Shown here: positions 36,097 through 37,917 of the stretch, piece after piece
Position numbering within the stretch: position 1 is the first letter of the stretch
Layout of the letters: each line of letters starts with the position of its first letter
The notes under the pieces: model-generated
Databases searched by the model: none
Seen by the model: only the letters and a program-made list of their open reading frames with translations
Told to the model about the DNA's origin: nothing
Program-made: the position numbers and the translations under genes
DNA from: Oceanispirochaeta sp.
Lineage (GTDB): Bacteria > Spirochaetota > Spirochaetia > DSM-2461
Assembly (NCBI GenBank): GCA_963663385.2
Contig: CAXXXD010000001.1
Coordinates: forward strand, 96,001-160,000
Length of the DNA: 64,000 nucleotides
Direction of reading: 5' to 3'

Positions 36097-37917
36097 TCAG
36101 GCTACGGGAATCTTCAGCTCGAAGCGGCAACCGTCCTCAAACTGATTATCCAGGGAAATACTGCCGCCGTAACGATTCAGGATATTATAACAGAGAGACA
36201 GTCCCAACCCGTAATTCTGGTTTGTATTTTTTGAAGATTTGAAAGGAAGAAAAACATCCGTCGAATCGTCAAAGGGGACACCGGGTCCGTTGTCTTCAAA
36301 AAGGATAGAGGCATACTCCCGCCCCTCTTCCCGGCTGATGGAAATAGCGATGACACCGCCTTCCGACAGGACTTCAAAAGAGTTTTTAAACAGATTCAGA
36401 ATAACCTGCTTGAATTCGTTTCTGTTAAAAAGGACCTGAACAGGAACCTCCGAATCCTCCCGGATATGGATTTCAATGTGCTTCTGCTTTCCATTGAACC
36501 GGATCAGGTTCATAAGCTCACGGATTTCATCACTTAAAATAATCAGCTCTTTATTCTCTTTCTGGTTATTGGAAAAGGTGATCAGATTCCCTATGACCTG
36601 TGAGATATAATTGATCTGTTCAAAGAGATAATCAAACACCGCCTCCCGTTCATCCGGCTTTACCTTATTCATCCGGAAGCTCTCAAGATAATTGGAAATC
36701 ACTCCCAGGGGATTATTAATCTCATGAGCCACTCCCGCAGACAGGAGTCCCAGGGACGCCAGTTTCTCCGACAGAATGACCTGATCCCGTAACCGCTCCC
36801 GCTCGGTGATATCTTCAATAATAAAGAGGTTTCCAATCAGTAATGCCCCCTCGTAAATGGGGTATAGAACAATATTGGCCATATACATCCCCTTTCCTGT
36901 CTGAAGGGGAATATTGAACATGGAACGGATTTCGCCGGATGCAGCGGTTTCCTCCAGCAGTTCCGCCGGAACAGGGCTTCCCCCGAAAAGACTTTCGACT
37001 GTCAATTCGGTAAGACTGGTATTATCATCCAGGCAGAAGAACTCCCTGGCGCTGGCATTAACCGTTTTAATCCTGTGATCCGTTCCCAGTACAATCAGGC
37101 TGATGGGAAGCTGTTTAAGGATCACTTCGTTGTACTTGAAGAGATTGCCGAATTCGAGGGTGTGATCCTGTTGATCCTCCAGAGAGGAAAACTGTGTATA
37201 GGCCATTTTGATTAGGCTTATTTTATCCAGATCCTTTACATTTTCGGATAAAAGCAGCTTCCCCTTCCGGATAATGCTTACCCGATCGGCAATCATATAG
37301 AGATCGTCAATCCTGTGGGTAATAAAAAGGATGGCACACCCGGATTTTTTCAGGGCATTAAGGGCTTTGATTACCTTTTCCAGACCGTCGGCAGAAAGCT
37401 TTTCCAGGGCTTCATCCAGGATCAGAACCCTGGGAGGAGTGTACAGATTTTTTACAATACTGAGAAAGGCTTTTTCCGACAGGGGCAGATTCGAGACAGA
37501 ATCCCGGGGATTCAGATCAAACCCGTTCTCTTTTAGAAACATCGCGGTGAGGACGTCGACTTTTTTCTGACTGAATCCCCCGAAGCGGGATTGGAACCTT
37601 TTTTTATTGGCAATGAAGAGGTTTTCAGAAACCGTAAGGGCATCATTCAGCCGGATTTTCTGAAAAACCATTCTGATACCGGCATCTATTGTCTCCTTAT
37701 AAGACATTCTGGCATAAGGTTTATTCTGATAAAATACCGCTCCTTCATCGGGAGAGATCAGGTTGGCGACCATTTTGGCCAGGGAGGATTTTCCTGCACC
37801 GTGTTCCCCGACAATGGCATGGATCTCCCCCTCATGAATAGAAAGGTTAATACCGTCCAGAGCCTTGATACTCCCGTAACAGAGGGATACGTCACGCATT
37901 TCAAGGATACACTTCAT
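36097..37917 (-). CDS. Fusion protein: ABC ATPase (RbsA/MglA N-half-like) - PAS - histidine kinase (HisKA + HATPase_c), no TM segments
   Basis: GEHGAGKS Walker A, VFQ Q-loop, ILDE Walker B, ITHR switch; PAS ending EDITE; H-box AHEINNPL; N-box [10 protein letters not shown]; DNGPG and GLGL G-boxes; ATG 37917 immediately after the RR stop. Confidence 0.9.
   Translation of the reverse strand: [606 protein letters not shown]

Follow-up and report, generated by a model that had tools for sequence, protein, structure and literature searches.

A 64,000-nucleotide stretch of the genome of Oceanispirochaeta sp. (assembly GCA_963663385.2, contig CAXXXD010000001.1, positions 96,001 to 160,000; called here the window, by whose own numbering its features are placed) contains on its minus strand, at 36097..37944, a gene for a histidine kinase that carries an ATP-binding cassette (ABC) nucleotide-binding domain (NBD) at its N-terminus, in front of PAS, HisKA and HATPase_c domains. 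According to our analysis this input domain derives from the first NBD (NBD1) of the tandem ATPases of CUT2 (RbsA-type) importers, and the kinase gene is located between the gene of a sigma-54-dependent response regulator and the genes of such an importer. We propose that these components make up a transporter-reading two-component system, a mechanism which, taken as a whole, we favour with moderate confidence.

Architecture and ancestry of the kinase

The kinase is read from one uninterrupted open reading frame (ORF) of 615 amino acids (aa). Two starts are plausible, at 37944 and at 37917, since the second is an in-frame ATG lying one base after the stop codon of the upstream regulator gene. 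The original prediction had recognised in the letters a fusion of NBD, PAS, HisKA and HATPase parts in a single ORF, and this reading is confirmed by Pfam, NCBIfam and a structure prediction. In the Pfam scan ABC_tran (PF00005) covers residues 29-180 (82.4 bits, cut-off 25), HisKA residues 399-461 (40.4 bits, cut-off 26.9) and HATPase_c residues 509-614 (65.6 bits, cut-off 26.4), all above threshold as expected, and the PAS domain, expected as well, came just short of it, with PAS_4 on residues 276-384 at 22.7 bits and a cut-off of 23.1; in the paralogue at locus L022 a PAS profile is above its cut-off (PF00989, 2.7e-9). NCBIfam profiles divide the protein in the same manner, residues 13-251 matching the first NBD of YtfR, AlsA, AraG, MglA and RbsA with E-values of 1e-41 to 1e-46 and residues 270-614 matching AtoS at 2.5e-53.

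The AlphaFold2 model, based on an alignment of 60 relatives (mean pLDDT 82.9), separates the NBD (residues 11-250, 37195..37914; pLDDT ~90) from the rest of the chain by a flexible linker, whose pLDDT is below 50 at residues 250-259 and which we place as the fusion junction at residues 251-259 (37168..37194), where no indel is found. It is followed by the predicted PAS domain with a conserved N-cap helix (residues 260-378, 36811..37167), by the DHp/HisKA helices with the phospho-acceptor H407 (residues 380-458, 36571..36807) and by the catalytic ATP-binding (CA) domain (residues 466-614, 36103..36549), all on the minus strand. The PAS region is modelled as a 5-stranded alpha/beta module with a helix (pLDDT 85-88), and Foldseek matches the C-terminal half of the model to the PAS/LOV kinases 4gcz and 3a0r and its N-terminal part to ordinary NBDs, such as LptB, FtsE, LivG-like and MetN. 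The claim that the kinase has no transmembrane (TM) segment also stands: none is seen in the model or in a Kyte-Doolittle 19-residue scan, in which the highest mean, 1.82 at residues 358-376, belongs to a segment folded in the model as PAS beta strands. The protein possesses what is typical for a HisKA-class kinase, namely the H-box histidine within DHp, the N, G1, F and G2 boxes of the catalytic domain and profile scores above the cut-offs; H407 (HEINNPL), N517, D551/G553/G555 and G579-G581 are invariant in 60/60 aligned family members.

The architecture is not peculiar to this locus. In a search of 5.8 billion proteins all of the best matches listed (120/120) were full-length, 597-641 aa long, and carried PF00005, PF00512 and PF02518, with 39-72% identity to the query kinase, and the architecture is kept across at least 120 sequence clusters. 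The named sources among the matches listed are Oceanispirochaeta, Spirochaetales metagenome-assembled genomes (MAGs), KSB3 (Moduliflexus, Vecturithrix), Desulfomarina and a Bacteroidia MAG. A full-length member is present in 13 of 301 genomes and 11 of 126 genera in a sample of the phylum, and its distribution there is therefore patchy, while the 5.3-Mb source genome alone has five full-length paralogues, next to 37 tandem-NBD CUT2-type ATPases and 49 BPD_transp_2 permease ORFs. When only the NBD was used as a query against 1.84 billion representatives, about 40 single-stretch matches of 603-642 aa came at 35-64% identity, followed by tandem ATPases at 25-31%; six shorter matches proved to be contig-end fragments of the same NBD-PAS-kinase architecture, and no other output fusion or stand-alone form of the kinase-type NBD occurred among the best 150 representatives.

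A chimeric assembly or a frameshift was considered and rejected. The kinase gene is covered by contigs of three studies; contigs X1/X4 and X2 show 0 differences from the window, and X6, a contig of a variant strain with 11 substitutions and no indel, spans the NBD-PAS junction. The objections which the original prediction had raised against itself, that the protein may be a one-off fusion or an assembly chimera, do not hold in view of the full-length matches listed, the five paralogues and the junction free of indels.

As for the origin of the NBD, trees were built from the 37 NBD1s and 37 (or 10) NBD2s of the genome's own ATPases together with 28 (or 22) kinase NBDs. All kinase NBDs form one clade (FastTree support 99, IQ-TREE SH-aLRT 97), which is separate from NBD2 (support 100 and 99) and placed next to or within NBD1. 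These trees indicate that the kinase NBDs derive once from NBD1 of CUT2 (RbsA-type) ATPases. The resemblance of the first ~240 aa to NBD1 of RbsA and MglA, suggested before, is thus borne out by NCBIfam, and the special likeness to the neighbouring ATPase, suggested along with it, is not seen in identities or trees: the kinase NBD is ~30% identical to NBD1s in general, and at this locus the cognate NBD1 reaches 32.8%, while NBD1s of other loci average 29.2%. A recent copying of the neighbouring ATPase was for this reason rejected, since the kinase NBDs are a single clade and their likeness to the cognate domain does not exceed the generic one; the two facts together point to one old fusion rather than to repeated copying.

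Conservation of the NBD motifs was compared column by column between the 60 aligned family members and NBD1s. Walker A (G-E-H-G-A-G-K-S, G46-S53), Q95 and Walker B with its catalytic glutamate (ILDE, I175-E178, including D177-E178) are kept in 100% of the members, Y23 of the A-loop in 96%, H210 of the H-switch in 95% with T-H-R at 90-98%, and the Q-loop/helical-subdomain stretch TVAENLF at 71-96% per position. Other elements are remodelled in a family-specific way. P-loop position 48, Asn in 100% of NBD1s, is His in 100% of the kinase family; the signature (L153-A159) went from LSVAQQQ to LxLSDR (S156 85%, D157 76%, R158 76%, Q159 lost), being LPLSEKA in the query; the D-loop (A179-L183) went from PTSSL to ALEKL, with L180 at 100%; and the inter-domain linker from MVGR to AYTQ, with Y249 at 100%. 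Invariant residues are also met in the C-terminal helix of the NBD and in the PAS N-cap (D240, K241, L244, Y249-Q251, E264, F265, K270-E273). Of the features by which an ABC NBD is usually recognised, the domain consequently has Walker A, Q-loop, Walker B, H-switch and A-loop, and it lacks the signature LSGGQ and the D-loop SALD. The division into kept and altered motifs had been drawn correctly from the single sequence, and the strings quoted for it (Q95, ILDE, ITHR, LPLSEKA, DEALEKL, and KALDEVNLAVKEGEVHILLGENGAGKSS in the neighbouring ATPase) are all located in the translations.

The signature, the D-loop and the remodelled P-loop position line the NBD:NBD interface around the gamma-phosphate. 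Because the three remodelled elements all lie there, we infer that the kinase NBD has acquired a new homodimeric interface, in which ATP binding would be retained and hydrolysis slowed or lost.

Some relatives deserve separate mention. A divergent member at L053:9035-10870 (minus strand) has an NBD1-like signature LPGRQQ and the D-loop DEISSKLTPDE, and its 38% identity to the cognate ATPase is the highest; stops interrupt the region where its Walker A is expected, and it may be a pseudogene, a MAG assembly error, or an ancestral-like or independent fusion. The ESM Atlas offers as leads further clusters with ABC_tran, HisKA and HATPase_c, all at a score of 0.83: a 515-aa form (136 members, mostly Spirochaetota) and Actinomycetota forms of 826 and 852 aa, the 852-aa one with GAF_2 in place of PAS.

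Gene neighbourhood and predicted output

Upstream of the kinase gene, at 37919..39235 on the same minus strand, lies the gene of the sigma-54-dependent response regulator (REC, AAA+ and Fis-type helix-turn-helix), in which Pfam finds Response_reg (5-114), Sigma54_activat (133-296, 3e-64), AAA_lid_14 and HTH_8; NCBIfam classifies it as AtoC/NtrC-like, and the GAYTGA loop is present in its translation. On the other side of the kinase gene, also on the minus strand, are the genes of the importer. A periplasmic sugar-binding protein of RbsB/AlsB type is encoded at 34953..35957 (longest ORF, with a probable start at 35906; Peripla_BP_4 2.5e-61, RbsB 4.4e-47), the motor ATPase with tandem NBDs of CUT2 type at 33382..34890 (two ABC_tran matches; AraG/XylG/RbsA-like, 1e-146 to 1e-160), and an RbsC-like BPD_transp_2 permease, assigned by Pfam and NCBIfam, at 32355..33389, with its coupling helix at about residues 206-230 (GNNEESVRLSG).

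This neighbourhood was compared over 24 genome-derived loci (not counting L006 and L007, which are short or truncated) and over 28 of 80 metagenome loci, the remaining 52, whose match was confined to a part of the query, usually its kinase half, having been dropped. A sigma-54 regulator is encoded directly upstream of the NBD-kinase gene in 24/24 genome loci and in 25/25 of those metagenome loci that include upstream DNA; in the source genome each of the five kinase genes comes after a gene for a REC/sigma-54-AAA+/HTH_8 regulator. An ABC importer stands next to the pair in 5/5 of these own-genome paralogues and within three genes of it in 22/24 genome loci, with the tandem ATPase visible in 20/24. 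It is likewise present in 20 of the 28 metagenome loci, and six of the other eight are contigs of at most 5 kb. In the five loci of the source genome the adjoining importers consist of a binding protein of the Peripla_BP_4, Peripla_BP_1 or Bmp type, a tandem ATPase of ~500 aa and at least one BPD_transp_2 permease. The two genome loci falling outside the rule are L005, located at the edge of its contig, and L047, where LacI and araBDA-like genes take the place of an importer. The expectation that full-length homologues would recur beside CUT2 transporters and NtrC-type regulators is in this way realised, and in the source genome the pair adjoins only five of its CUT2-type importers.

Several loci show variations of their own. 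At L048 a single-NBD ATPase is found with its permease; in the related loci L005 (2952-4049) and L008 (9965-11062) a MalK-type ATPase (ABC_tran and OB_MalK, 365 aa) is encoded directly downstream of the NBD-kinase gene; and two NBD-kinase genes share a 14-kb metagenome stretch at L061 (82-1950 and 8968-10815), only the second having a visible regulator and importer.

The importer operon of the window is preceded by a sigma-54 promoter, TGGCAT-N5-TTGCA (GG-N10-GC; TGGCATAAGGTTTGCA), found by sequence match at 35953..35968 on the minus strand, 46 nt upstream of the probable binding-protein start (ATG 35906, with the ribosome-binding site AAGGAG). Only 33 sites as good as this one exist in the 5.3-Mb genome, and in 18 of 21 loci the first importer gene has a -24/-12 element ahead of it, where 0.02 would be expected per 350 nt. 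The genome also has rpoN (190 bits). Just after the kinase gene a dyad TGTYCA-N5-TGRACA (36075..36091, no strand assigned) may be the enhancer, or upstream activating sequence, on which the regulator acts. It is centred ~116 nt ahead of the -24 GG and is trailed by additional half-sites as far as ~36046, and similar half-sites recur in the orthologous loci L001-L004. The dyad is the only exact match in the window, where matches with at most one mismatch number 3 against 0.45 expected. All parts of an NtrC-type system are therefore at hand, that is, a regulator with REC, sigma-54 AAA+ and helix-turn-helix domains, rpoN and a -24/-12 promoter. The predicted chain from the kinase through the regulator and the sigma-54 promoter to the importer operon is well supported at the sequence level, because the regulator gene lies upstream, the importer is adjacent and the promoter recurs in 18/21 loci.

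Between the binding-protein and ATPase genes, at 34911-34933 on the minus strand, there is a GC-rich hairpin with a T-rich tract behind it, in the position that an intra-operon attenuator or stabiliser raising the output of the binding protein usually occupies.

The input and its rival explanations

If the output is that of a familiar NtrC-type system, the input would be new. The five paralogues adjoin importers of different kinds in one cell and must therefore receive five distinct signals, which a shared ATP pool cannot supply; it leaves the PAS domain or a specific transporter contact as the only sources, and this speaks for a kinase that reads the transporter rather than one that simply senses ATP. 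The complex of the permease with kinase residues 1-262 was modelled, from alignments of 21 and 60 sequences, respectively, in three runs and with three controls. The NBD-permease ipSAE was 0.74, 0.74 and 0.78, the best control giving 0.10, on a mark calibrated so that it is reached by 116 of 157 solved complexes and by 2 of 215 mismatched pairs; the runs share at least 74% of contacts, and the pLDDT of the partners is at least 81. Permease residues 206-230 (the coupling helix) and 286-287 are brought together with NBD residues 62, 82-86 and 92-126 (the groove of the Q-loop and helical subdomain), so the modelled interface is the canonical one between a coupling helix and the Q-loop groove. A sequence search of the PDB with the permease profile gives 0 matches, and the pass is therefore not a memory of a like CUT2 complex; the general geometry of NBDs on coupling helices is well represented in the PDB. 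The core of the groove (M92, L99, E107, F110) is very conserved in the family (0.3-0.7 bits of entropy). The 22 permeases associated with a kinase have a more canonical coupling-helix motif, G-x-N-E-E-A-x-R-L-S-G, than the 43 others of the genome, its N/R/S being kept at 100%/81%/86% and 76%/41%/48%, respectively, in sets that are phylogenetically biased.

From these data the following mechanism may be drawn. A kinase dimerised through DHp would present two NBD1-like domains, which would dock by the Q-loop/helical-subdomain groove on the coupling helices of a permease dimer, exchanging there with the tandem motor ATPase. When the substrate-loaded binding protein engages the permease, the ATP-bound NBDs would move together or apart, and this motion could be relayed by the conserved C-terminal helix of the NBD and the PAS N-cap to the DHp helices, by which autophosphorylation would be switched. 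With the signature, the D-loop and the P-loop His remodelled, the homodimeric ATP sites would be slow or non-hydrolytic, ATP being a clamp rather than a fuel. The kinase would then phosphorylate the NtrC-type regulator encoded just upstream, which would bind the dyad after the kinase gene and activate the sigma-54 promoter of the binding-protein/ATPase/permease operon, so that more importer is produced. What the data show is the domain architecture, the kinase family with its genomic linkage and motif pattern, the promoter and a docking model that passes; that the NBD docks inside the cell, which way the switch turns and what becomes of the ATP are the steps that we infer. A more specific form of the proposal, put forward tentatively and as a possibility which we would not place above its opposite, is that the importer is at the same time a receptor: in some of the permease dimers the NBD-kinase dimer would stand in for the motor, giving a complex of the binding protein, two permease subunits and two NBD-kinase chains, and closure of the remodelled, non-hydrolysing, ATP-clamped NBD dimer would be the primary stimulus of the kinase.

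A number of observations weigh against such docking and the mechanism built on it. Three loci (L047, L065 and L071) have adequate flanks and no adjacent importer. Wherever the importer is visible in full, a complete tandem ATPase belongs to it (20/24 genome loci, and likewise the metagenome loci), and since importers keep their own motor, the extra NBD is not needed for transport and would compete with that motor. No residue signal of cognate specificity emerges. Over 20 loci the kinase NBD is 30.5% identical to the cognate NBD1 and 29.3% to non-cognate ones; at the 23 interface positions the likeness to cognate and to other NBD1s is 0.228 and 0.214, and 422 of 3000 shuffles are as high (for the whole domain 52 of 2000 and for the helical subdomain 116 of 2000 are as high, in shuffles that ignore relatedness). 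These 23 positions are more variable than the rest of the kinase NBD (2.16 vs 1.68 bits), and the same is true of genuine NBD1s (2.29 vs 2.06 bits elsewhere). In a mirror-tree comparison of all 153 pairs the NBD follows the permease with r=0.73 (PAS 0.55, kinase core 0.58), but in the 134 deep pairs r is ~0, the distances of kinase and regulator not tracking those of the transporter. Finally, close cousins of true partners pass the complex test too, so that a pass may reflect likeness to the true partner; because of it, the model supports the docking competence of the NBD on the permease, short of demonstrating docking. The earlier suggestion that the NBD docks on the adjacent permease thus finds agreement in the complex model (0.74 vs 0.10) and none in the tests of cognate specificity.

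Several of these observations would fit the main rival, a cytoplasmic metabolite sensor, in which the PAS domain binds the imported sugar or its derivative and gives each paralogue its specificity, the NBD being kept off the membrane complex as an ATP/ADP-dependent dimerisation or gating module that links the kinase to the energy state. We consider this rather unlikely, even if the kinase is soluble, its ATP-binding residues are invariant with the dimer-interface motifs coherently remodelled, and many conserved residues are found in the PAS N-cap and core; the missing cognate signal at the predicted permease interface, the importers' own motors and the three loci lacking an adjacent importer speak for it as well. 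It leaves unexplained, however, why the input should be NBD1 of precisely that importer class which adjoins in 22/24 loci, why the Q-loop and the core of the hydrophobic groove stay conserved, and why the docking model passes with a canonical interface. Nor is the PAS domain more divergent between subfamilies than the NBD, as the mutual information between residue and subfamily is 0.66 for PAS and 0.4-1.0 for the NBD; a scan for subfamily-specific positions, which had only 4 groups of at least 4 sequences and is suggestive, puts columns 56, 96, 118 and 159-162 highest.

One may also imagine that the kinase NBD pairs with the motor ATPase, capping one NBD of an idle RbsA-like protein or intercalating in its cycle, and so reads the nucleotide state of the motor. 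A tandem ATPase is indeed always co-encoded where the importer is fully visible, and the canonical Walker A of the kinase NBD could face a canonical signature, for instance LSGGNQQK of NBD2; yet the motor has its NBDs covalently joined, so that each is the other's partner as it is, and the kinase signature and D-loop, being unlike those of NBD1, make it a poor mimic, which renders the idea quite improbable. It is harder still to believe that the NBD is an evolutionary relic, structurally maintained and functionless, in a kinase regulated only through PAS or partner proteins. Its non-canonical signature and D-loop and the L053 member with stops in the Walker A region could be cited in favour of it, but over at least 120 clusters the NBD equals the kinase core in conservation, with Walker A, Q-loop and Walker B at 100% in the 60 aligned members and family-specific invariant residues besides, and purifying selection on the NBD is incompatible with a relic.

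Relation to known systems and further features

To our knowledge, transfer of information from a transporter to signalling is known in few systems (Bce, Pst/PhoU/PhoR, DctA/DcuS), always between separate proteins and with interfaces that are hard to map. By function the Bce modules come nearest to the system described here, and the PstSCAB-PhoU-PhoR relay is also close. The kinase of a Bce module sits in the membrane as a protein of its own, attached to the permease by TM helices, its transporter is of the peptide-resistance type and its regulator of the OmpR type; the kinase described here is soluble and carries a transporter NBD covalently, and it goes together with a binding-protein-dependent importer and a sigma-54 activator. 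In the Bce modules of Firmicutes (BceAB, BceS/BceR) a kinase without its own sensor reads the activity or conformation of an ABC transporter, and the output is transcription of that transporter, a need-based or flux sensing (PMC4513084, PMC10314905). The likeness is in the proposed path from a transporter-reading kinase to the transcription of the same transporter, and the NBD-kinase system may work like a Bce module without being one, as its kinase has no TM segment, its permease is of BPD_transp_2 type and its importer has a binding protein. In the PstSCAB-PhoU-PhoR system, as described in PMC9239213 and PMC13577022, a histidine kinase receives at its PAS domain a relayed signal on the state of an ABC importer; there a separate adaptor, PhoU, and the membrane-anchored PhoR are involved, whereas here NBD and PAS are on one chain and no adaptor is evident.

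The relation to the CUT2 ATPases (RbsA, MglA, AraG, XylG, YtfR) is that of an input domain to its source, with grouping by NBD1 and not by NBD2. The kinase differs from them in having a single NBD with a family-specific signature, D-loop and P-loop residue, and it is not itself such an ATPase, the best score being 156 bits against the YtfR cut-off of 850 and covering profile positions 1-236 of 492. In MalK- and MetN-type ATPases further domains likewise follow the NBD, and those of the kinase would similarly hang beneath an NBD dimer; Foldseek aligns ~390-400 columns of the kinase to the MetN chains 6cvl_D, 3tui_D and 3dhw_C. The proteins of this type are motor ATPases whose C-terminal domains regulate transport or sequester a regulator, while the C-terminal part here is a complete kinase. 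With AtoS/AtoC, NtrB/NtrC, ThkA (3a0r) and ZraS the system shares the kinase core and the NtrC-type partner class (ZraS 8e-33 beside the AtoS match given above; structures 3a0r_A and 9jfj_A), and none of these has an ABC NBD as N-terminal input; by descent, the kinase thus combines a CUT2 NBD1 with a PAS kinase of AtoS/ThkA type. It falls outside the AtoS/NtrB equivalogs, AtoS scoring 181 bits against a cut-off of 646 and on residues 270-614 only.

The original prediction knew of no characterised kinase with this architecture, and we found no description of an NBD-PAS-HisKA-HATPase kinase in the full-text literature searched, whose coverage does not extend to subscription-only journals. The ABC NBD can be added to the list of histidine-kinase input domains, and, should the importer really serve as a receptor, NBD dimerisation would be a new class of such input. 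The covalent link, conserved over at least 120 clusters and present in five copies in one genome of culturable type, provides a clean and genetically tractable model; it hints at how importers could become receptors in the course of evolution and could be explored in synthetic biology as a modular sugar-responsive switch.

Further upstream context of the window on the minus strand comprises, by Pfam, a PfkB sugar kinase (39310-40185) and a LacI-family regulator (40224-41303). In L001 and L004, too, the regulator gene is immediately preceded by two ORFs, with lengths of 357 and 291 aa in the one locus and 353 and 292 aa in the other, given here by size rather than by family. Beyond the importer, on the plus strand at 30045-32257, two overlapping genes run convergently towards the permease gene and appear by eye to encode 2-amino-3-ketobutyrate CoA ligase and threonine dehydrogenase.

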